From Thermoanaerobaculia bacterium (GTDB lineage Bacteria; Acidobacteriota; Thermoanaerobaculia; Multivoradales; UBA5704), in NCBI GenBank assembly GCA_044226625.1, contig JBGAGQ010000052.1, forward strand, positions 1 to 47,863: 47,863 bases of DNA, read 5' to 3'. The notes beneath the pieces are model-generated. The model searched no databases. It saw only the letters and a program-made list of their open reading frames with translations, and was not told where the DNA came from. The stretch's first letter is position 1; every line of letters begins with the position of its first letter. Position numbers and translations under genes: made by a program. Shown here one piece after another: positions 23,282-34,260 of the stretch.

Positions 23282-25576
23282 CTAGCGAAAAGCTAGACTC
23301 AAGAGCCGTTGAAACCTGGTGTCACTCCGCAGGGCCAGCAAATCGGGCTCGCGCCCAACTTCGTCGCGCGAAAAACCCTGCTGCAATGCGCGCTGGAGAA
23401 ATTCGAGGGCCCGCACTCGGTCGCCGGCCAGCTCGCTGGCGATCGCCAGGCGGAAGAGCGTACGGCCCTCAGCGGTCTCGACTTGGGTGACTTCGCGAAG
23501 GGCCTCGTCTCTCTGTCCGGCTTTGGCCAGGTAGAGCGCCCACTGGCTCCGTAGCTTGGCGTTCTTGGGATCGCGGGCGATGTCGGGTTCGATCAGTCGG
23601 GCAGCGTTGCGAAAGGCTTCCGGGGCTTCGTTGCGACGGTGGGGGATCTGGCGCCAGGCGTCGCCCAGGTTGCCCCACATGTCGTGACGCTTGGCAGCCT
23701 CGGGGAAGCCGAGCGCCTTTTGATAGGCGTCGGCCGCCGCCGGGTAGAGGCCTTGATAAAAGTAGACCGTACCGAGGTTGCCGTAGAGCGTCGCTTCCGG
23801 ATGAACCTTAAGGGCGCGCTTCAGGAGTTCGGTGGCTTCCGGCAGGCGGTTGGTGGCGATCAAGGCGCCCGCAAGGTTGCGGAGGCCGTACACGCCGTCC
23901 GGTGCTAGGGCAACGCTTTTTCGGTACTCGGCCTCGGCCTCTTTTGTTCGGCCGCTTCGGAAGTAAAGGGTGCCGAGCAGGTCGTGGAACGTGCGGCTCG
24001 CGGGGTTCAGCGCGATCGCTCGCTGGAAGGCGGCTTCGGCTTGGGCGGTCTCCTCAGCGGCTTGGTGCATCTCTCCGAGCCCGCGATAGGCGTCGGCGTT
24101 CTTAGGATCGAGGGTGCGGGCTTTCTCGAGCTCGCTTCGAGCTTCGTCGCGCTTCCCTGATTTGAGCAGGATGAACCCGAGGCTCACCCGAGCGTCGGCG
24201 AGGTTGCCATCCAGCTCGACGGCGCGGCGCGCCACGGCGAGCGCCTGGTCGAGCCACATCGCGTCGCCCCCCTCTTCGCCGAGCTTTTGCCAGTAGGCAC
24301 GCGCGAGGCCCGCGTGGTCGAGGGCTGAGTTGAGATCGTCCTCGATCAGGCGGTGGAAGAGATCGACCGCACGGTCTAGGTTTCCGGGCAGGTCGTAGCG
24401 GTCGAGAGCCGCCCACGCCTTTTGGGTAAGCGCTTTTCGTTCCGTGACGGACAGCGGTCGGGCGACGGCGGGGAACGGCTGGGCGGCGTCGGAGCGCGCG
24501 GTGGAGGAGCGCTTGGCTAGGGGGGCTTGGAGCAGACCGAAATAGGCAGCGCCCAGCAGAAATGTGGCGATTGTCGCCGCCGCCGCGACGTGGCGGGGCG
24601 GGAAGCGCCGCAGGCCCGATGAACCCCGAGCGTTCGGGGCGATGGCGGGCTGGACGTGGAGCGTCTCGGTCACCGCCGTCGTCGAACCGTCCGAGCCCGG
24701 CTCCTCGATCGTTTCGCCCAGCTCGGCGAGGAGGCGACCGACCTTCCGTGCCACCTCCCCGGCGCTCGCCGGTCGGAGCTCCGGCGCCTTTTGGAGCAGC
24801 TGACCGATCAGCGCGGCGAAGCCGGCTGACAGCTCGGGAGGGAGTGGAGCGTACGGCTCGGCGACGATGCGGTGCAGCGTCTCGGCGGCGTTGGCGCCCT
24901 GGAAAGGGGAGCGGGCGGTGAGGATCTCGTAAAGCAGCACGCCGAGCGCGAAGAGGTCCGCCCGCGGTCCCACGGCGAGCCCCAAGACCTGCTCCGGCGC
25001 CACGGAGCGGAGGGTGCCGACCAGCACTCCCGCGCGGGTGAGCGGGTCGGTGCTGGGGTCGCCTTCCGCCGGCAGCTCGCGGACCAGGCCGAAGTCGAGG
25101 ATCTTCGCCGTCGGCGGGTCGGTTTTGGCGATCAGCACGTTCTCGGTCTTCAAGTCCCGATGGACGAAACCGAGCGCGTGCGCCGCCGCGAGCCCTTCGG
25201 CGATCTGGCGGCCATAAAGCAGGACGGCGCGAAGGGGGAGCGGTCCCTGGACCACCAGATCGGTGAGCCGCGGCCCCTCCACGTACTCCATGACGATCCA
25301 ATCGCCCGGCTCCGTCTCGATCAGGTCGTACACCTGGACGATCGACGCGTGGCTGAGCCGCGCGGCCGCCCGAGCTTCGCGGCGAAACCGCTCCCGCGCT
25401 GTGCCCCCGTCATGATCCAAGCGCAAGCGCTTAATCGCGACGTTTCGGCCGAGCCGGCGGTCGAAGGCGAGGAACACCTCGCCCATGCCGCCCCTCCCGA
25501 GTCGGCGAATGAAACGGTATGGTCCCAGGTCGCCTGGGACCTCGGCGCCCTCGTCCTGCCCCGGTTGTCCATTCAC
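23282..25576 (-). CDS. Hanks-type Ser/Thr kinase with TM helix and C-terminal TPR repeats
   Basis: LGRGGMGEV, VAIK, HRDLKTEN, DFGL, GTLRSVAPE, DLFALG; TM VAAAATIATFLLGAAYFGLL; many TPR-like repeats. Start uncertain (GTG 25576 chosen). Confidence 0.93.
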   Translation of the reverse strand: MNGQPGQDEGAEVPGDLGPYRFIRRLGRGGMGEVFLAFDRRLGRNVAIKRLRLDHDGGTARERFRREARAAARLSHASIVQVYDLIETEPGDWIVMEYVEGPRLTDLVVQGPLPLRAVLLYGRQIAEGLAAAHALGFVHRDLKTENVLIAKTDPPTAKILDFGLVRELPAEGDPSTDPLTRAGVLVGTLRSVAPEQVLGLAVGPRADLFALGVLLYEILTARSPFQGANAAETLHRIVAEPYAPLPPELSAGFAALIGQLLQKAPELRPASAGEVARKVGRLLAELGETIEEPGSDGSTTAVTETLHVQPAIAPNARGSSGLRRFPPRHVAAAATIATFLLGAAYFGLLQAPLAKRSSTARSDAAQPFPAVARPLSVTERKALTQKAWAALDRYDLPGNLDRAVDLFHRLIEDDLNSALDHAGLARAYWQKLGEEGGDAMWLDQALAVARRAVELDGNLADARVSLGFILLKSGKRDEARSELEKARTLDPKNADAYRGLGEMHQAAEETAQAEAAFQRAIALNPASRTFHDLLGTLYFRSGRTKEAEAEYRKSVALAPDGVYGLRNLAGALIATNRLPEATELLKRALKVHPEATLYGNLGTVYFYQGLYPAAADAYQKALGFPEAAKRHDMWGNLGDAWRQIPHRRNEAPEAFRNAARLIEPDIARDPKNAKLRSQWALYLAKAGQRDEALREVTQVETAEGRTLFRLAIASELAGDRVRALEFLQRALQQGFSRDEVGREPDLLALRSDTRFQRLLSLAFR

Positions 25577-25816
25577 GTGTTCGATACAGTAACGCTCTTC
25601 CTGAGGCTCTGCAAAGCTGTGCCTTGGTGCAGCCTCAATGCAGCCACTGGTTTGGCGCACCTTTTCTATCGACGCGGGCGTCACGCAGTCGTCGGTGGCT
25701 CTCGCCCGGCTGCTAGGAAGAGGAATCTGCGCAACTCTTCTCTGGACGCGGTCGGCCCGGATGCGGATAATCGACGGTCAAATCGTTGGTTTTGGCTGGC
25801 GAAGGGGCGGACGTTG

Positions 25817-27613
25817 ATGAGCGGAGCGCTACTCGCGAACGGGAAGGTGGGTCGTCGTGTGGGAGGGCTCGTGGCGTTGGCCCTGGTCCTGGGGTTCGGT
25901 CCGGCTCGGGCGAACATCTCCGGCTTCGTCCGGGTCGCCGGCAGCGGCTCGCCGGGTACGCCGGTCGCGGGAGCTCGGGTGCAGGTGCGCGCCGATCCCT
26001 CCGTCGTGGCGATCACGGCGGCAGACGGCAGCTTCACGCTCGCGGCCAATCCCGTGGGCGCCGTCGATCTCGCGGCCGCGGTGCCCTATAACCGGTCGGC
26101 GGCCACGAACTATCTGATCGCCGGGGTGGTCGCGAACAACGGCGACACCGGGCTCGACATCCGGCTTCCGGTCCTGCCGCCGGCGGGCAATCCGAGCTAC
26201 GCGCCTCCGTCGGCGACCTATTGCCAGAACTGCCACGATTCGGTCTATCCGCAGTGGGCGAGCTCCAACCACGCGAACACGGCGACCAATGAGTGGGTGC
26301 TCGACCTCTATTCGGGCTCGGGTACGGCGGGCGGCGGCGCGGGCTACGTCTTCCGCTCGACCCACGACGTGGGGGAGACGGGATTCTGCGCCACCTGCCA
26401 CGCGCCGATGGCCGACGTCTTCAATCCGGGGGGGACGTATCTCGACGAGGTGAGCGACGCGAACGCGCTCGAAGGCGTCAACTGCGTATCGTGCCACCAG
26501 ATGGATTCGGTCGACGAGAACAACCTCGACGCGCTGCATCTTCTCGGCAAGTCGACCTACCGGTTCCCCGACGGCTCCGCCTTCCCGACGCAGGACTACG
26601 TTTGGGGCCCTCTGCCCGACGTCACGTTCTCGCCGATGAAGACCTCGCTTTCGACGCTGCACGACTCGTCGTTGGTCTGCGCCTCGTGCCATCAGTACAA
26701 GAATCCGACCACCGGCTCGCCGGGGCAGAACACCTACCGCGAGTGGGCGGCCTCGTCGTTCGCCGCACCGGGTCCGGGGCACCGCGATTGCCAGAACTGC
26801 CACATGCCGGAGTCGACCGAGCCGGGCACGCTCTGCATCTTCTCGCCCACGGACCGGCCGGGTGACCAGCGGCGCCAGCACATCTTCATCGGCTCGACCC
26901 CGGACATGCTGCAAAACAACGTGTCGCTCACGGTCGGCGCGCAAGAGGTGGCCGCGGGGCGGATCCGCGTCACGGCCGACGTGACGAACTTCGGAGCCGG
27001 CCACTCGTTCCCCACCGGGGTCTCCATCCGCAACGCGATCCTGGTCGTCACCGCGCTCTGGAACGGCCAGCCGGTGCCGCAGGTCTCCGGACCGGTCGTG
27101 CCGTTCTGGGGTAGCGACGACGTGCCGGGCGACCAGCCTGGCGACCTCGCCGGCATGGCGGGCAAGGGGTTCGCGAAGGTCCTCGAGGGCCGGATCAACG
27201 GTCAAGGGGCGGTCGTACGCCCGGTGCTGTTCATCGACGCCGAGGGGGGCGCGTTCTCCGACACCCTGATCCCCTCGGGCGCCACCGATACCACGCAGGT
27301 CGAGTTCCAGCTTCCGGCCAACGCTCCGCCCGGCGCGGTGGTCGACATCGAGGCGCGCCTGGTTTATCGGCGCACGTTCCGGGCTCTCCAGGTGACCAAG
27401 GGCTGGACCCAAAGCGCGCATGGTGGTCCGATCGAGATCGAGGTGGGCCGGCAAGCCCTTTCGGTGACCGCGACCGGCGGCTCGGTCCTCGACGTTCCGG
27501 CGCTCGGTCCCTGGGGCATCGCGCTGTTCGCCCTGGCGCTCGCCGCCGCCGGCGTCTGGCTCGCGGCGCGGCGGCGCGACGGCTCGGCGCCGACGACGCC
27601 GACCTCGATCTAG
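25817..27613 (+). CDS. secreted 5-heme cytochrome c with N-terminal carboxypeptidase-regulatory-like domain and IPTL-CTERM-like anchor
   Basis: Signal peptide ending ARA; CQNCH, CATCH, CVSCH, CASCH, CQNCH; GHSFPTG; C-terminal VPALGPWGIALFALALAAAGVWLAARRR. Confidence 0.88.
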   Translation: MSGALLANGKVGRRVGGLVALALVLGFGPARANISGFVRVAGSGSPGTPVAGARVQVRADPSVVAITAADGSFTLAANPVGAVDLAAAVPYNRSAATNYLIAGVVANNGDTGLDIRLPVLPPAGNPSYAPPSATYCQNCHDSVYPQWASSNHANTATNEWVLDLYSGSGTAGGGAGYVFRSTHDVGETGFCATCHAPMADVFNPGGTYLDEVSDANALEGVNCVSCHQMDSVDENNLDALHLLGKSTYRFPDGSAFPTQDYVWGPLPDVTFSPMKTSLSTLHDSSLVCASCHQYKNPTTGSPGQNTYREWAASSFAAPGPGHRDCQNCHMPESTEPGTLCIFSPTDRPGDQRRQHIFIGSTPDMLQNNVSLTVGAQEVAAGRIRVTADVTNFGAGHSFPTGVSIRNAILVVTALWNGQPVPQVSGPVVPFWGSDDVPGDQPGDLAGMAGKGFAKVLEGRINGQGAVVRPVLFIDAEGGAFSDTLIPSGATDTTQVEFQLPANAPPGAVVDIEARLVYRRTFRALQVTKGWTQSAHGGPIEIEVGRQALSVTATGGSVLDVPALGPWGIALFALALAAAGVWLAARRRDGSAPTTPTSI

Positions 27614-27635: not shown

Positions 27636-27723
27636 AGCGATGGGCCTACACTGGACGGCGAAATCGAAAAGGTACCGTTTACATCGACAGACGAAGCTTC
27701 ATTTCACGCGAAAGGAGCAGTCC

Positions 27724-28377
27724 ATGAGGTCGAAGGGTCTCACGGCTTTCATTCTCCTCTTGGGGTGGGCGGGGGCGGGTTACGCCGCTTCGGTACCCGC
27801 GCTCGAGAGCCGAGGGGGCGAGCCGCTTTCAGACTCCGATCGTTCCTCCTTGGCCGCCTGGGCGATCGCCCAGCCCGAGGTCAAGAGCCACGTTGGAGAG
27901 AGCCGGACGCGGTTCCTCCGGGGCGGAGCGGAGGTCGCCAAGAAGGACGACGGTCGAGAGTACCGGCGGGCGGTGCTGTACTACCGCAACTATGACAGCG
28001 GTGTGGTCAACGAGGTCGAGGTCGATCTCGATTCGGGCGCGATCACGGTCCGCGACCGGCGAGACCAGGTGCAGCCGAACCGGGAAGAGGTCCAAGAGGC
28101 GCTCGCCATCGTCGCGCGCGATCCGCAGCTCGGCTCCCTGGTCAAAGATCCCAACATCTACGCCGACGGCGGTTTCTACGCGCGCAGCCTGATCGAGCGA
28201 GATCCCTGCTCGAAAGACGTCTGCCTGCAGATCCACCTGATGAACTCCGGAGCTGGCGCCGGTTGGTCCCATCGCCTCATCGTCAATCTGAGCCAAGGGA
28301 CGGTCGCCAATCGGAACTACCAGAGTCCGACCGTCCAAGGGCAGATCGTCCCGATGACCGATTTAGGAGGCAACTAG
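27724..28377 (+). CDS. secreted protein resembling copper amine oxidase N-terminal (N2/N3) domains
   Basis: RBS AAGGAG, signal peptide; RRAVLYYRNY...EVEVDLDSG...VQP...EEVQEALAIVARDP pattern. Confidence 0.6.
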   Translation: MRSKGLTAFILLLGWAGAGYAASVPALESRGGEPLSDSDRSSLAAWAIAQPEVKSHVGESRTRFLRGGAEVAKKDDGREYRRAVLYYRNYDSGVVNEVEVDLDSGAITVRDRRDQVQPNREEVQEALAIVARDPQLGSLVKDPNIYADGGFYARSLIERDPCSKDVCLQIHLMNSGAGAGWSHRLIVNLSQGTVANRNYQSPTVQGQIVPMTDLGGN

Positions 28378-28381
28378 ATCC

Positions 28382-29476
28382 ATGCGCCGCCCCATCGCTC
28401 TCGCACTCTTCGCCATCGGCGTCGCGACCCTGGGCTCGTCTCAGCTCTCGGCGCAGTGCACCGGCGTGAACCACGTCACCTGGCCGGCGGTCAACCCGGT
28501 CTGGGACTTCTGCTGGGTCCGCCCGTCGCAAACGTTGCAGCCCAATGGCGAAGGCATCCGCATCACGGACGTCTTCTACAAGGGCCGCAAGATCTTCAAG
28601 GACGGCGGCATCCCGGTGCTGAACGTCAACTACAGTCCGGGCGGCTGCGGCTGCTTCCGTGACTGGTTCGACCAGGAGAGGGCGTTCTCGTGCGCGCCGT
28701 CCCCGTCGTCGGGCTATTGCACTGGCACCTCCACGCCGGTCACCACGGTGTGCAACCATCCGGGCTCGGACGCCGGCACGTTCTCCGGCGTCTCGGTGGT
28801 CGACAAGGGGACCAGCCTCAAGCTGACCTCCCAGGCCCAGGCCGGCTGGTATCGCTACATCTCCACCTGGGAGTTCTTCCCCGACGGGCGGATCCACCCC
28901 GGCATGGACATCACGGCGGTCAACAACTCCTGCGTCGCCTCGACGCACCGGCACCACGCCTATTTCCGGTTCGACTTCGACCTCGACGCCAACTCGAACA
29001 ACTTCGTCGACAAGATCGGCGCGGCCTCGAGCTCGCGGGTCGCGACCGAGACCACCTGGACGGACTCCTCCAGCGAGCGGTCCCAGTGGCGCCTCGGCCG
29101 CACGGGTTCCTCGACCCGCGTCTACGTCCGCCGCAACGCGGAGGACGGATTCGCCGCGGGCGATACGTTCGGCAAGATCGACGGCGCGGTGCTCGCGTAC
29201 AGCGCCTCGGAGCTGAACGACTCGTCGGGCGGTTGCGACATCAACCTCACCCCATACACCAACGGGCAGAACGTCAGCAACGCCGACCTCGTGATGTGGG
29301 TCCACTCGATGGTCGATCACATCGGCGAGCCCGGCGGTATCTCGGCCGAGTGCTTCATGTTCGGACCGTGGGTGCAGGTGCGGACGACTCCGACCCCGTC
29401 GGACTTCAACGGCAACGGAGTTTCGGACGTCAAGCTCTACATGAACGGTACCTGGGCCTCGTTCCCGGTTCCCTGA
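28382..29476 (+). CDS. secreted copper amine oxidase-like catalytic domain, short and Cys-rich
   Basis: EGIRITDVFY, LNVNY, AGWYRYISTWEFFPDGRI (TPQ segment), HRHHAYFRFDFDLD (HxH), DLVMWVHSMVDH (third His); C-terminal FG-GAP-like repeat. Confidence 0.75.
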   Translation: MRRPIALALFAIGVATLGSSQLSAQCTGVNHVTWPAVNPVWDFCWVRPSQTLQPNGEGIRITDVFYKGRKIFKDGGIPVLNVNYSPGGCGCFRDWFDQERAFSCAPSPSSGYCTGTSTPVTTVCNHPGSDAGTFSGVSVVDKGTSLKLTSQAQAGWYRYISTWEFFPDGRIHPGMDITAVNNSCVASTHRHHAYFRFDFDLDANSNNFVDKIGAASSSRVATETTWTDSSSERSQWRLGRTGSSTRVYVRRNAEDGFAAGDTFGKIDGAVLAYSASELNDSSGGCDINLTPYTNGQNVSNADLVMWVHSMVDHIGEPGGISAECFMFGPWVQVRTTPTPSDFNGNGVSDVKLYMNGTWASFPVP

Positions 29477-29532: not shown

Positions 29533-30336
29533 ATGTCCTACACGAAGAGCGCGCTCGCCTCCCTCGCGGTGGCCGGCGCTTTCTCGCTGCTCGTGAGCCT
29601 GCCGGCCGCCGCCCAGGTGGTGACCGGCAATCCCGGCGGCAACTGCATCCCGGCGGCCGCGGACTACGACGGCGACGGCGATACCGACTATTCCCAGCTG
29701 TGCGACGGCGCCTGGCACTTCTATAACGCCGACGGCAGCTACCTCAAAGGGATCTGGGTCGGCAACATCCCCGGGATCTACCCGGTGGCCGCCGACTACG
29801 ACGGCGACGGCGCGGACGATCCGGTGATCTTCAACAACGGCGCCTGGATCACCTTCAACTACCAGACCGGCGCGATCGCCTCGGCGCTTTGGACCGGCCC
29901 TCCGGGAGCGCTCGGCTTGGCGTTCGACGTCGACGGTGACGGCAAGGCCGATCGCTCGGCCTACCAGGCGGGTGCCTGGCACTTCTTCAACAACGACGGC
30001 ACCTACAGGAAGGGCATCTGGATCGGCGACATCCAGGGACTGATCCCGGTTCCCGGCGATTACGTCGGCAACGGCATCGAGTCTCCGGTGATGTGGAACG
30101 CGGGAGCGTGGGTGCGGTTCGACTTCACGACCGGCGCGATCGTCTCGGCGGTCTACACCGGTCCGCCGTCCGGCGTTCCGGCGCCGCTCGATTACGACGG
30201 CGACGGTGGCCTCGACTTCACCGCCTACGACAGCGGTCCCTGGCATTTTTTCAACGACGACGGCACGTACAAAGGGGGAGTCTTCACCGGCGGCGGGCCG
30301 AACGACAAGCCGATCTCGCGCCGCTCGCTGCACTAG
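29533..30336 (+). CDS. secreted FG-GAP/VCBS repeat protein (5 repeats)
   Basis: RBS AGGAG, signal peptide ending AAA; DYDGDG x3, DVDGDG, DYVGNG. Confidence 0.88.
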   Translation: MSYTKSALASLAVAGAFSLLVSLPAAAQVVTGNPGGNCIPAAADYDGDGDTDYSQLCDGAWHFYNADGSYLKGIWVGNIPGIYPVAADYDGDGADDPVIFNNGAWITFNYQTGAIASALWTGPPGALGLAFDVDGDGKADRSAYQAGAWHFFNNDGTYRKGIWIGDIQGLIPVPGDYVGNGIESPVMWNAGAWVRFDFTTGAIVSAVYTGPPSGVPAPLDYDGDGGLDFTAYDSGPWHFFNDDGTYKGGVFTGGGPNDKPISRRSLH

Positions 30337-30441: not shown

Positions 30442-30921
30442 TCACAGGGCGGCGAGGACTTGCTCCGCGCCGCTCTTTTCGAATTTCCCCGGCTCGTCGA
30501 GGAAGAGGGCGGAGAGCACGCCGTCCTCGAAGATCGCGGCGTAACGGCGCGAGCGCTTACCCATGCCGAAGCGGGTGCTGTCGTTTTCGAGCCCCATCGC
30601 CCGCGTGAAGTCCCCGTTGCCGTCGGCCAGCATGACGATCTTGTGGCCGACCCCGCGGCTCGCCCCCCAGGCGTCCATCACGTAGTGATCGTTGACCGCG
30701 ACACAGGCGATCACCTCGACCCCCTTGGCGTGCAGCTCGTCGGCGTGGTCGATGAAGCTTGGCAGGTGGTAGTCCGAGCAGGTGGGGGTAAACGCTCCCG
30801 GCACCGCGAACAGCACTACCTTGCGACCGCGGCAGAGCTCGCCGGTCGCGACCTGTCGCACCTCGCCGCGCTCCATCGTGAGTAGCTTGACGTCAGGGAT
30901 CTTTTGGCCGACTTCGAGCAT
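30442..30921 (-). CDS. peroxiredoxin (Prx5/type II)
   Basis: VPGAFTPTCS..HLP, VNDHYVMDAW, ADGNGDF, RSRRYA. Confidence 0.95.
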   Translation of the reverse strand: MLEVGQKIPDVKLLTMERGEVRQVATGELCRGRKVVLFAVPGAFTPTCSDYHLPSFIDHADELHAKGVEVIACVAVNDHYVMDAWGASRGVGHKIVMLADGNGDFTRAMGLENDSTRFGMGKRSRRYAAIFEDGVLSALFLDEPGKFEKSGAEQVLAAL

Positions 30922-31034: not shown

Positions 31035-31640
31035 GTGCGACCCGCTCGAACGCGCCTCCCGATTTGGATCGCGGCCGCCACTCTGCTGGCGGGCTCCGTG
31101 GCCGCTTGCTCGGGCGGCGGTCCGGGGGAGGAGCGTGCCCCGCAGACGGCACGGAGATCCGAAGCGCAGCGGCCCGCCGAGCGCGAGCGATCTTCACGGC
31201 CGGAGCGCGAGGTCCGAGCGCGCGGCGTAAGGGCTCGTTGGAGCGACACCGAACCGCCGATCAACCTCACGCACCTCTTCGAGGGGCAGGTCAACAAGCG
31301 GGGCAAGCCGGTCGGATTCCACGCCCGGCCCGGCGGTGTCGATCCCGAGGGCGCGCGCCTCGTCCGCGTCGTCGACGGCCCGGATCGCGCCGGGGTCTAT
31401 ATCGCGAACGTCGAGATCCGCGGCCAATCGGAGCGTTGGCTGGAGAAGACCTCGACCCTCTTTCCGGACGACTTCACGTCGGACGAGGTGCAGGCCGCGA
31501 TCCTCGCCGCGTTCGAGCGCTCCGGGGCGACCGAGAAATGGCGCGGCGACTCGGGGCGGGGTTTCACGATCGAAGGGTATTACCAGAACGGCCGGATCAA
31601 CACGGCGTATCCGATCTTTCGGGGATCGGGGAGGAGGTGA
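31035..31640 (+). CDS. EndoU (bacterial) nuclease-domain lipoprotein
   Basis: Lipobox VAAC; THLFEG, GFH, KTSTLFPDD, WRG, INTAYP match the bacterial EndoU pattern. Confidence 0.75.
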   Translation: MRPARTRLPIWIAAATLLAGSVAACSGGGPGEERAPQTARRSEAQRPAERERSSRPEREVRARGVRARWSDTEPPINLTHLFEGQVNKRGKPVGFHARPGGVDPEGARLVRVVDGPDRAGVYIANVEIRGQSERWLEKTSTLFPDDFTSDEVQAAILAAFERSGATEKWRGDSGRGFTIEGYYQNGRINTAYPIFRGSGRR

Positions 31641-31642
31641 GC

Positions 31643-32047
31643 ATGGCGATCCACCGGAACCCGTCTCGGTCGGAGGGCTCGTCCGAGCCGAGCTTGCTGC
31701 GAATCTTTCGCGACGAGGCCGGCGATCTGCGGGCCGAGGACCTCTCTCGACGGTCGCGGCGCGGTCTGTTGGTGGCGTTTCTCGAGAGCGAGGTGCAGGG
31801 GAGCGCGGCGGTCGGGCGCGAGATCCTGGAGCAGCTCGCCCAGGTGGTGGCCGGCGAGCGAGTACGCGCGAAATGGACCGGCAACGCCCACACGCTCGTC
31901 ATCGGCAAGAAGACCGCTCTGATCACCGACGAGATCGACCCGGAGTCGCCGAGTCTCCGGCTGCCGATCGGCGACCTCTACAGCGCGCTCGACGCCTGGC
32001 TTGACGTGGTCGAAGGCAACGGCAACGGCGCGAGCGCCGGAGAGTGA
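31643..32047 (+). CDS. small protein, YacL/UPF0231-like; possible EndoU partner
   Basis: RBS GGAGG, 2 nt after the EndoU stop; FLESEVQG...WTGNAHTL...LDAWLD. Confidence 0.5.
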   Translation: MAIHRNPSRSEGSSEPSLLRIFRDEAGDLRAEDLSRRSRRGLLVAFLESEVQGSAAVGREILEQLAQVVAGERVRAKWTGNAHTLVIGKKTALITDEIDPESPSLRLPIGDLYSALDAWLDVVEGNGNGASAGE

Positions 32048-32057
32048 CGGCAAGCCG

Positions 32058-32426
32058 ATGCCGCTGTCCCCCGACTACCGCGCGTATGCCCTCGAGCAGC
32101 TGGAGCGTGCCGCGCCGGTGACTGCCAAGACGATGTTCGGCGGCGCGGGGCTCTATCTCGACGGGTTGATCTTCGGACTGCTCGACGACGACCGGACGTT
32201 CTTCAAAGCGGACGAGACCAACGCCGTGTTGTTCGACGCCCACGGGACCGACTGGTTCCACCCGTACGGCGACGAGCGGACGATGCCCTATCGCGAAGTG
32301 CCGGTCGAAGTGCTCGAAGATCCCGACGAGCTGCGCGGCTGGATCGAGGCGGCCGTGGAGATCGCGAAGAGGAAGAAGGCGGCGAAGGGAGCGAAGGGGA
32401 AGGCCACGAAGCGCCCGAAAAGGTGA
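32058..32426 (+). CDS. TfoX/Sxy N-terminal domain protein
   Basis: KTMFGGAGLY.DG.IFGL, FFKAD, MPYREVP.EVLED. Confidence 0.9.
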   Translation: MPLSPDYRAYALEQLERAAPVTAKTMFGGAGLYLDGLIFGLLDDDRTFFKADETNAVLFDAHGTDWFHPYGDERTMPYREVPVEVLEDPDELRGWIEAAVEIAKRKKAAKGAKGKATKRPKR

Positions 32427-32734: not shown

Positions 32735-34180
32735 CTAGAACCGGCCCCACAGGTACTGGTTCGTCACCTCGTGGTGGAACTGAACCTCGCTCGCTTTGAT
32801 CAGCGTGCCCAAAGCCTTCGGGCAGCGCTCGGCCTGGGCGAGCTTGATCTCGGCGTATTTGGCGTGGACTTCTTCGCCGAGCAGGTCGGCGGCGAAGCGG
32901 CTCCCCTTGAACAGGCGGATCGCGTCGTAGATGTTGTCGGGGAGGAAGCGGGTCCGCGGCCGCTTGCCTTCGGACTCCTCCTCCGCGATCGGCCCCTCGA
33001 GGCCGGTTCTGAGCAGCGAGTAGATCGCCATGTAGGGGTTCGAGTCGGGCGCGATCGAGCGGACCTCCACGCGCGCCGATTTTTCGTTGCCGAGGGGGAT
33101 GCGGACCATCGAGCCGCGGTCGATCGGCGAGGCCTTGATCTGGTTCGGCGCCTCGAAGTGCGGGTCGAGCCGGCGGTAGGAGTTGACGCTCGAGTTGAGG
33201 ATCAAGCAGACGTCCGAGGCGTTGGCGAGGATCCGCTGGATGTAGTCCCAGCCGGCGGGGGAGAGGCCGTCCTTGCCGTTCGGGTCGTAGAACAGGTTCT
33301 TGCCCGCCGCGGTGATCGACATGTTCGTGTGCATGCCGCTGCCGTTGATGCCGGTGACCGGCTTGGGCAGGAACGACGCCGTCATGTCCATCCGCGCCGC
33401 CACCTGGCGCGAGAGAAGCTTATAGAGCTGCACCTGATCGGCCGCGATGGTCGCCTCGGTGTAGCTGTAGTTCATCTCGAACTGGGAGGGGGCGACCTCC
33501 GGGTGGTCCTTCTCGTTCGCGAAGCCCATCGCGCGCTGCACCTCGGCCGCGCTGTCGATGAACTGGCGCAGGGCGTCGCCCGGCAGCGAGTGGTAGTAGC
33601 CGCCCGTGCTGATGAACTCGAACTGCTCCGTCTCGGGGAAGCGCCGCTCGGCGTCGCGCCCCTTGAACAGGAAGCCCTCGATCTCGTTCGCGACGTTCGC
33701 CACCTTGCCGCCGTCGGCGTAGAGCTGGTCGCAGTAGCTCTTGAGCCGCGCGCGGAGGTCGGCGCGGTAGGCCGCGCCGTCGCGCTCCCGGACCTCGCCG
33801 AAGACGAGCACCTTGCCCGGTCCGAACACGTCGGAGGGGAGCCAATAGAACGCGGGCCAGTCGATCGCGAGGCGCAGGTCGGATTCCTGCTGCGCCGAAA
33901 AGCCGCGGATCGACGAGCCGTCGAACGTCAGGTTGTCGGCCGACTTGAGCAGGAACTTCTTGTCGTAGTCCAACATGTGGAGCCGGCCTTCGAGGTCGGT
34001 GAAGCAGACCGTCACCGCCTTGATCCGCTTCTCGTCCTGGAGGTAGCGCATCCGCTCCTCCTGGATCTCCTCGGGGGACTTCCGGGCCAACCGGTCGGCC
34101 TTCGCCGCCAGGTTCATCTCCTCCAGGCGGTCGTAGGGAATCTCCAGAAAGTCGCGCAACGGCGGCGTAGACGTCGTCAT
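32735..34180 (-). CDS. glnA: glutamine synthetase family protein (type I)
   Basis: FDGSSIRGF, EIEGFL, HPEVAPSQFE, FLPKP..GINGSGMH, NSYRRL...EAP, RVEVRS..PDSNPY; RBS before ATG 34180. Confidence 0.88.
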   Translation of the reverse strand: MTTSTPPLRDFLEIPYDRLEEMNLAAKADRLARKSPEEIQEERMRYLQDEKRIKAVTVCFTDLEGRLHMLDYDKKFLLKSADNLTFDGSSIRGFSAQQESDLRLAIDWPAFYWLPSDVFGPGKVLVFGEVRERDGAAYRADLRARLKSYCDQLYADGGKVANVANEIEGFLFKGRDAERRFPETEQFEFISTGGYYHSLPGDALRQFIDSAAEVQRAMGFANEKDHPEVAPSQFEMNYSYTEATIAADQVQLYKLLSRQVAARMDMTASFLPKPVTGINGSGMHTNMSITAAGKNLFYDPNGKDGLSPAGWDYIQRILANASDVCLILNSSVNSYRRLDPHFEAPNQIKASPIDRGSMVRIPLGNEKSARVEVRSIAPDSNPYMAIYSLLRTGLEGPIAEEESEGKRPRTRFLPDNIYDAIRLFKGSRFAADLLGEEVHAKYAEIKLAQAERCPKALGTLIKASEVQFHHEVTNQYLWGRF

Positions 34181-34260
34181 GGGAATCTCCTCGGAAGAGG
34201 CATGCGCCTCAGGTTCAGTCGTCGGAGTCAAAATCTACCACGACTAACCTAAAAAAGAGG

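Follow-up and report, generated by a model that had tools for sequence, protein, structure and literature searches.

We investigated a pair of adjacent genes, ORF-A (27724–28377) and ORF-B (28382–29476), both on the plus strand of a 47,863-nucleotide stretch of DNA, hereafter the window, which comprises positions 1 to 47,863 of contig JBGAGQ010000052.1 in the assembly GCA_044226625.1 of a Thermoanaerobaculia bacterium. We are highly confident that the two products are the D2-D3 and D4 halves of one protein of the copper amine oxidase (CAO) superfamily, D4 being the copper-binding catalytic domain. Taken as a whole, the locus is probably best explained as a split, secreted copper oxidase of this superfamily, with a cofactor derived from Tyr157 of ORF-B and non-canonical chemistry. 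That cofactor and that chemistry, considered separately, are a tentative proposal, the chances of which we put slightly below even.

The CAO family is regarded as uniform: its members are taken to have a single chain, the motif N-Y-D/E, Asp as the base and topaquinone (TPQ) as the cofactor. The clade to which ORF-B belongs, here called the WYRY clade after the motif W156-Y157-R158-Y159 of ORF-B, breaks these rules, and it is represented by 331 sequences in a profile search at E ≤ 1e-30 and by at least 580 loci in species-representative genomes. What is new here is the recognition of the A-B split as one form of a widespread, uncharacterized clade of the CAO superfamily with a rewritten active site.

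Two parts of a CAO on separate chains

ORF-B (protein P0002, 364 amino acids) passes the Pfam model PF01179 (Cu_amine_oxid) with 43.3 bits (E 2.9e-11, cut-off 27 bits); it is the model that the first-pass annotation of this DNA had suggested for checking the assignment. PF01179 was the sole family in a Pfam search at E ≤ 1, which gave no match to a model of the lysyl oxidases that use lysine tyrosylquinone (LTQ), and the two NCBIfam primary-amine oxidase models, NF008559 and NF011285, scored 13.8 and 11.2 bits, below their respective cut-offs of 651 and 1278 bits. The AlphaFold2 (AF2) model of ORF-B, made with 53 homologues, has a predicted local distance difference test (pLDDT) score of 89.3 and a predicted template modeling (pTM) score of 0.87. 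Its top Foldseek matches in the Protein Data Bank (PDB) are all CAOs (1avk, E 1e-13), and VIA-align places it on residues 232–620 of AGAO, that is, on D4, with Z 26.6 and root-mean-square deviation (rmsd) 3.1 Å over 280 residues. The modeled ORF-B has the antiparallel beta-sandwich fold of the D4 catalytic domain, and the CAO-like fold on which the earlier assignment had been staked is thus what the model contains.

As a reference for the family, we used 14 canonical CAOs from Acidobacteriota genomes (open frames of 655–929 amino acids, all with NY[DE]Y), to which the WYRY family profile aligned in hhalign with a probability of 98.3% (E 1.9e-14, 279 columns). Residues 28–317 of ORF-B align to CAO residues 261–631, so that D4, the core of which spans approximately residues 26–339 here, has about 80 residues fewer in the aligned core. 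The earlier description of the enzyme as miniaturized holds for this domain but not for the protein as a whole: mature ORF-A and ORF-B together come to about 536 residues, near full size and similar to the single-chain members of the clade (about 520–600 residues). The 10 cysteines previously counted in the 364-residue chain lie at positions 26, 44, 89, 91, 104, 113, 124, 184, 285 and 324. In a conservation alignment of 140 representatives of the family (80 single-chain, 59 split-type and the query), C89 is present in 137 and C184 in 135, both being kept even where the signal peptide is missing.

ORF-A (P0001, 217 amino acids) matched nothing in Pfam and NCBIfam searches, and a word-based search returned 10 close homologues. 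Single-sequence searches against PDB sequences were weak for both proteins, with nothing meaningful for ORF-A and a marginal match alone for ORF-B (3pgb, E 0.29), so that profiles and folds were needed. Matches in the ESM Atlas all remained below 0.9 for ORF-B, and those of ORF-A consisted of unnamed clusters and of clusters of stand-alone N2/N3 domains at 0.79–0.83. The AF2 model of ORF-A (pLDDT 79.3) contains two repeats, each of a helix and four strands, which were delimited by AF2 secondary structure, VIA ranges and hhalign: a D2-like alpha/beta repeat at residues 37–112 (27832–28059) and a D3-like one at residues 120–196 (28081–28311), the latter containing the family-invariant E122 and G149-G150-F151. 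This two-repeat model fits the account, in the part of PMC3382800 consulted here, of D2 and D3 as alpha/beta domains of about 100 residues ahead of D4. Foldseek gave 48 matches at E ≤ 1e-3 for the ORF-A model, every listed one being a CAO (best 8.1e-6). VIA placed residues 30–200 on ECAO 94–281 (Z 7.9) and residues 26–203 on HPAO-1 17–211 (Z 7.5), in both cases on D2 plus D3; these scores are middling, and the rmsd is high since two domains were aligned together. A profile of 76 ORF-A sequences aligned in hhalign to canonical CAO residues 15–216 with a probability of 96.2% (E 2.8e-9, 180 columns). ORF-A is a homologue of D2-D3 carried on a separate polypeptide, and PF01179, Foldseek, VIA and hhalign together bear out the first assignment of the two ORFs to the N-terminal and catalytic parts of a CAO.

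A Shine-Dalgarno-like AAGGAG, read from the sequence at 27712–27717 on the plus strand, ends 6 nt before the ATG of ORF-A at 27724. ORF-A stops with TAG at 28375–28377, and ORF-B starts after a gap of 4 nt with an AGGAGG of its own (28365–28370, plus strand), located inside the 3' end of ORF-A and 11 nt upstream of the ORF-B ATG, a layout typical of translational coupling. The N-termini of both proteins (approximately residues 1–21 of ORF-A and 1–24 of ORF-B) show, as read from the sequence, a basic n-region that gives way to a hydrophobic stretch and then to a cleavage motif of small residues, have AF2 pLDDT values below 60, and resemble Sec signal peptides. Both the coordinates and these signal-like N-termini agree with the original description of two adjacent secreted ORFs separated by 4 nt. 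A scan for consensus promoters and terminators between 27400 and 30800 found none.

Conserved pairing and the wider WYRY clade

A pattern scan of species-representative genomes yielded at least 609 matching stretches, of which at least 580 were confirmed, and 74 loci were kept for neighborhood work. These loci span Thermoanaerobaculia, Holophagae, Terriglobales and Rhodothermales/Rubricoccaceae, including cultured Rubrivirga, as well as Massilia/Telluria, other Burkholderiales, one cyanobacterium and Ca. Elarobacter. Using hidden Markov models (HMMs), we found 85 copies of ORF-B in them, 79 of which have at least 650 nt of upstream sequence; directly upstream of 75 of these 79, on the same strand, lies a homologue of ORF-A, and at least one A-B pair is present in 69 of the 74 loci. 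Two of the 75 (in L054 and L063) consist of a weak ORF-A match in the same ORF as B, and the four copies of ORF-B that have no ORF-A detectable by HMM are located in L038, L044, L071 and L074. Tandem A-B arrays occur as well, which suggests diversification of the cassette: L035 and L067 each contain three pairs, and L029, L034, L041 and L062 each contain two.

Complex prediction for mature ORF-A plus ORF-B gave a score of 0.91, compared with 0.00 for the best of three controls; 116 of 157 solved complexes attain the 0.91 mark, as do 2 of 215 mismatched pairs. Contact agreement among the runs was at least 86%, and the pLDDT of the partners was at least 85. The predicted interface joins residues 112–120 and 148–154 of ORF-A to residues 92–95, 154–156, 181–184, 280–285 and 302 of ORF-B, with ORF-A Q117 contacting R93–W95 and A154, and ORF-A F151 contacting F92 and G155. 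Among 76 relatives of ORF-A (median identity 24%), E122, G150, F151 and V187 are present in 100% and G149 in 99%, and given the predicted interface, the most conserved residues of ORF-A would lie against the strand of ORF-B running up to Y157. We infer, with the correspondence of residues included, that ORF-A takes there the role that D3 plays at the CAO substrate channel (PMC3382800, part consulted). The exposed site envisaged in the first-pass annotation is not supported by this prediction, in which ORF-A packs on the Y157 strand as D3 does in CAOs. The two-subunit enzyme that it proposed is supported by the gene pairing and by the predicted complex, and we consider it likely that ORF-A and ORF-B form a heterodimer. 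ORF-A E122 was also considered as a clade-specific base acting in trans and was rejected, because a conserved acidic residue occupies the same column in canonical CAOs.

Sequence comparison places the A-B split within a large uncharacterized clade as one of its forms; many members of the clade are single-chain. A profile search of 1.84 billion representatives returned 1508 at E ≤ 1e-3, 902 at E ≤ 1e-10 and 331 at E ≤ 1e-30, the last being 50%-identity clusters. The motif [AGS][GSA]WYRY is present in 141 of the best 150 representatives, and WYRY follows other residues in five more. Adding the single-chain paralogue P0133 to these 150 (n = 151), we counted 65 proteins with an ORF-A-like domain in the same chain, 51 of the split type and 19 with more than 150 N-terminal residues that the ORF-A HMM does not recognize. 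A FastTree phylogeny of 140 members, rooted on the 14 canonical CAOs, implies 17 changes between the fused and split states, of which at least 14 are forced; given the noise in the labels, which come from metagenome protein lengths, and FastTree as the only method, we claim neither a direction nor a number of fissions. In this tree, ORF-B belongs to a clade of seven split-type rows.

P0133 is encoded in the same genome on another contig (C21; L075:268–1977, 570 amino acids). It has the motifs EAGWYRY and HHHH..YWRLDFD, is 31% identical to ORF-B over 300 residues (E 7e-41) and scores 38.9 bits on PF01179, and its D3-like region matches the ORF-A profile with a probability of 92.9%. P0133 has no signal-like start and may represent this type of enzyme in a cytoplasmic form. 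Such single-chain relatives argue that the two parts encoded by ORF-A and ORF-B belong together. A PF01179 scan of the own genome found P0133 and not ORF-B, so that surveys conducted with PF01179 undercount the WYRY clade.

The public names of ORF-B relatives, namely, 'hypothetical protein', 'Copper amine oxidase, enzyme domain' and 'Cu2+-containing amine oxidase', are automatic labels, which already recognize the domain and have no experimental or curated function attached; on WYRY proteins, labels such as 'Cu2+-containing amine oxidase' are probably misleading. Relatives of ORF-A have either no name or the name 'hypothetical protein'. A search of literature available without subscription found nothing on the WYRY clade or on a split CAO and no characterized family with this organization, which would have counted against the first-pass annotation; PMC12058724, in the part consulted, is limited to animals and plants.

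Kept and replaced active-site residues

We mapped the active site from two alignments, one of the family profile with PDB chains and the other, by hhalign, with the 14 canonical CAOs. On the side of what is kept, ORF-B Y157 (AGWYRY) aligns with the TPQ precursor Tyr (ECAO VGNYDY), Y159 with the Tyr at +2, H189 and H191 of H189-R190-H191 (28946–28954) with the HxH copper ligands, H313 (29318–29320) with the third His ligand, RFDFDLD with the RLDxDxD stretch, and Y84 with the gate Tyr of the P-Y-G-D motif; the HxH, the distal His and the Tyr at the TPQ position thus align as they had first been read. Replaced are the Asn ahead of the precursor Tyr (W156 in ORF-B), the Asp/Glu after it (R158), the Thr of T-x-x-N-Y (Q153), the catalytic-base Asp of Y-x-D (P86, at high hhalign confidence) and the Tyr that is hydrogen-bonded to TPQ O4 (HPAO-1 Tyr305), the counterpart of which is K73 in a non-conserved column. 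Around the precursor Tyr, ORF-B reads Q-A-G-W-Y-R, which departs from the CAO Asn-Tyr-Asp/Glu motif. That G-W-Y-R-Y stands in place of N-Y-D/E had been recognized at the outset, and W156, Y157, R158 and Y159 (28847–28858) proved to be invariant in 53 aligned ORF-B homologues. The strongest departure, judged from the alignments, is absent from that earlier account: neither the base Asp nor the O4-bonding Tyr of CAOs is conserved.

Conservation across the 140 family members follows the same division. P78, Y84, R93, D94 and D280 are found in all 140, W156, Y157, Y159, H191, R196 and D267 in 139, R158 in 137, H189 in 127 (with Arg in 11) and H313 in 125. Position 86, the column of the CAO base, is variable; an acidic residue occupies position 85 in 77 of 139 members, and ORF-B has Ser there. 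Across phyla, where the median identity is about 35–40%, approximately 20 residues round the former active site are almost unchanged. By this measure, R93, D94, W156, R158, D267 and D280 are a new invariant set in place of the CAO residues. Together, the residue mapping and the conservation indicate that the machinery of copper and precursor Tyr has been retained and that the residues that use TPQ in amine oxidation have been swapped for another fixed set.

The part of PMC3382800 consulted here describes what the canonical residues do. The base Asp is strictly conserved in CAOs, and in ECAO only Glu in its place kept activity, with kcat down 6.4e4-fold. In HPAO-1, N404A forms 5–10% TPQ, biogenesis in E406Q is about 10-fold slower, Y305F derails TPQ biogenesis, and the +2 Tyr, Tyr407, is part of the lining of the O2 pocket; the unmodified Tyr forms Cu(II)-tyrosinate and Cu(I)-tyrosyl species during CAO biogenesis (PMC3382800, same part).

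The TPQ CAOs (EC 1.4.3.21/22) are homodimers that two beta-hairpin arms hold together. With the bacterial and yeast ones (AGAO, ECAO/TynA, HPAO-1), the A-B pair has in common the D4 beta-sandwich (Z 25–27), tandem D2-D3 alpha/beta domains, the three His ligands, strictly conserved in those enzymes, the precursor, +2 and gate (Y84) Tyr residues, and RxDxD after HxH. Unlike those enzymes, it consists of two secreted polypeptides with a D4 core shorter by about 80 residues and 10 Cys, has W-Y-R for N-Y-D/E, does not conserve the base Asp or the O4-bonding Tyr, and has the new invariant residues R93, D94, D267 and D280. The CAO fold of ORF-B is also that of Pichia pastoris lysyl oxidase (PPLO; 1n9e, VIA Z 23.9). 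PPLO is a CAO that acts on peptidyl lysine, and it is a full-length, single-chain TPQ enzyme; among CAO relatives, it is the one suggested by the macromolecular substrates that the first-pass annotation considered. Lysyl oxidase, with LTQ, and LodA/GoxA, with cysteine tryptophylquinone (CTQ), are secreted oxidases whose quinone derives from a Tyr or Trp of the protein itself, and these quinoproteins are examples of cofactors defined by the nucleophile or partner residue. The folds of the LTQ and CTQ enzymes are unrelated to that of ORF-B, for which PF01179 is the only Pfam match, and lysyl oxidase is not homologous to CAOs (PMC3382800, part consulted).

We propose that ORF-A and ORF-B make up one secreted copper protein of the CAO superfamily, naturally cut between D3 and D4. 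Each half would be exported via its own signal peptide, and the heterodimer would assemble outside the cytoplasm. Q117-P118 and G149–F151 of ORF-A would rest on the ORF-B strand A154-G155-W156 and on the loop R93-D94-W95 (28658–28666), which comes after the lost catalytic-base position and is predicted to contact ORF-A Q117/P118, creating a composite entrance near Y157. Y157 may be converted by copper and O2 to a cofactor of the quinone type or to a variant of such a cofactor, and the protein would be an oxidase. It would not be a canonical primary-amine oxidase, with the base Asp, the Asn and Asp/Glu flanking the Tyr, and the O4-bonding Tyr all replaced. D94 or D280 might serve as acid/base, and R93/R158 might bind an anionic group; the invariant Arg/Asp pair allows a guess at a charged, perhaps carboxylate-bearing, substrate.

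A bolder reading, which we regard as rather unlikely, is that the WYRY clade is a new copper enzyme class on the CAO scaffold, with a two-subunit site and substrates untouched by CAOs. The site would be built from R93, D94, W156, R158 and D280 of ORF-B together with Q117 and F151 of ORF-A, self-processing of Tyr157 with Cu/O2 would give something other than catalytically canonical TPQ, be it another quinone, a cross-link or a Cu-tyrosyl center, and some lineages may feed electrons to a neighboring multiheme cytochrome beside O2.

The pair could instead encode an ordinary TPQ primary-amine oxidase that is merely split and uses a relocated acid (D94, D280 or residue 85) as its base. The kept copper ligands, precursor Tyr and Y159, the counterpart of HPAO-1 Tyr407 in the O2 pocket, would fit such an enzyme, as would the formation of some TPQ by flanking-residue mutants (PMC3382800, part consulted), the invariant D94 and D280 at the predicted A-B interface near the Y157 strand, and the acidic residue 85 in 77 of 139 members; an M28 peptidase (12 of the 74 loci) or a DAO-family flavin adenine dinucleotide (FAD) oxidoreductase (16 of 74) is located near some copies. 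However, four strictly conserved CAO residues have changed together and are fixed otherwise across the clade, the base of ECAO is replaceable by Glu only and at the loss of kcat given above, residue 85 of ORF-B is Ser, and the NCBIfam primary-amine oxidase models stay far below their cut-offs, all of which makes this explanation unlikely. We think it similarly improbable that the enzyme is a quinone-free copper oxidase, in which Y157 would stay a tyrosine and be a copper ligand or tyrosyl radical, like that of the radical copper oxidases, or the copper held by three His would alone activate O2, and the substrate would be something other than an amine. The loss of the TPQ-steering residues with the copper site and Tyr remaining, the Cu(II)-tyrosinate and Cu(I)-tyrosyl species of CAO biogenesis (PMC3382800, part consulted) and the invariant Trp next to the Tyr are consistent with it, but W156 is adjacent in sequence, hence its stacking on Y157 is not implied, and there is no likeness to a galactose oxidase-type fold, the top Foldseek and VIA rows all being CAOs.

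Two further explanations have much lower odds in our view. The pair may descend from a CAO and be non-catalytic, a copper-binding, structural or surface protein acting with an FG-GAP repeat protein. This idea draws on the loss of the canonical catalytic base, on relatives fused to FG-GAP, Big-like, FN3 and type IX secretion system (T9SS) domains of the surface or adhesion type, and on members without two of the His; yet the approximately 20 near-invariant residues round the former active site form a pattern typical of an enzyme, and about 90% of members retain the copper ligands, so that we hold it to be very unlikely. Finally, the existence of single-chain relatives could lead one to suspect that the split is an artifact of a frameshift or assembly error in one gene. 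The same stop-then-start split is nevertheless present in 73 ORF-B copies of other genomes (the 75 minus those of L054 and L063), ORF-B has a signal-like peptide and a Shine-Dalgarno sequence of its own, none of the 53 aligned ORF-B homologues is extended at the N-terminus, and DNA contigs of another run (X1 records 2 and 3) match the window across the A/B junction, which leaves an artifact extremely improbable.

Several observations weigh against our preferred explanation, the split, secreted copper oxidase with a Tyr157-derived cofactor. Solved CAOs hold D2-D3 on D4 within one chain, and the pass of the predicted complex may reflect this likeness; the nearness of D94 and D280 to Y157 rests on the shared contacts of that prediction. 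The VIA score of ORF-A, Z 7.9, can be reached by unrelated folds, and matches of single domains to YpmB and monellin have comparable scores. HPAO-1 N404A and E406Q still form TPQ (PMC3382800, part consulted), so that the changed motif is compatible with TPQ. Approximately 10 of the 140 members lack H189 and/or H313; in about 10, no His occurs 3–15 residues past W306, where the third ligand would be expected. Clustering of the neighborhoods of the 74 loci gave no universal third gene and no consistent clue to the substrate, and the contigs from RNA libraries described below may stem from DNA. The His-lacking members include P0163, P0182, P0185 and P0235, and WYRY is still present in 137–139 of the 140; these members may be a copper-free sub-branch, such that part of the clade may not bind copper.

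The copper site and precursor Tyr are kept while the residues that use TPQ are replaced, and this makes the WYRY clade well worth searching, in bacteria of soil and water, for a novel cofactor derived from protein or a novel copper-oxidase activity; some members come from cultured Rubrivirga and Massilia. The split pair is, in addition, a natural experiment on the contribution of D2 and D3 to catalysis.

Third gene, neighborhood and expression

Downstream of the pair lies ORF-C (29533–30336, plus strand), which encodes a secreted protein of 267 amino acids with a signal-like start and five 44-residue FG-GAP/VCBS-like repeats and is probably the third gene of the operon. ORF-C is kept downstream in the three closest loci (L001–L003), and in P0006 it is fused to an ORF-B homologue (57% identity over 254 residues). 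The C-terminal tail of ORF-B (residues 341–364, 29402–29473; monomer pLDDT 55–67) is itself one copy of the ORF-C repeat (DFNGNG...GTW), and this repeat, together with the fusion in P0006, suggests that ORF-B and ORF-C associate. Other relatives of ORF-B carry C-terminal Big-like, FN3 and T9SS sorting domains, which point to the cell surface.

Upstream of ORF-A, a gene at 25817–27613 on the plus strand encodes a multiheme c-type cytochrome with an IPTL-CTERM sorting signal, which resembles ExtKL (NF040886) with E 1.1e-14, far below the cut-off. A homologue of this cytochrome stands beside the A-B pair in 7 of the 74 loci, in two arrangements and two Acidobacteriota classes: it adjoins the pair in L001, and six Holophagae loci (L021, L025, L026, L033, L037, L057) have it on the opposite strand. 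A redox link between the cytochrome and the pair is possible. The other partial neighbors are, besides the DAO-family oxidoreductase and the M28 peptidase counted above, a GSDH gene in 6 loci.

In the metatranscriptomic library X3, a 471-nt contig covers 28089–28543 with 4 mismatches and crosses the A/B junction, and further pieces lie in ORF-B and ORF-C; parts of the stretch are uncovered, which is no sign of absence. Another run, X8, guessed to be RNA, contains a 235-nt contig at 28192–28426. These contigs are a hint of transcription across the A/B junction.

In 10–11 of the 74 loci, all from Thermoanaerobaculia and among L004–L015, the A-B pair lies between rpoC and rpsL-rpsG-fusA, an odd location for a secreted oxidase-like cassette. 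In the window, a Redoxin/AhpC-type peroxiredoxin gene (30442–30921, minus strand) is convergent with the end of ORF-C; such a neighbor would fit an oxidase that produces H2O2 and may also be there by chance. The pair and its adjoining genes are flanked by a Ser/Thr kinase with TPR repeats (23282–25684, minus strand) and by a bacterial EndoU nuclease domain protein (31035–31640, plus strand). Farther out are a TfoX_N protein (32001–32426, plus strand) and glutamine synthetase (32735–34231, minus strand); for none of these four is a link to the pair obvious.

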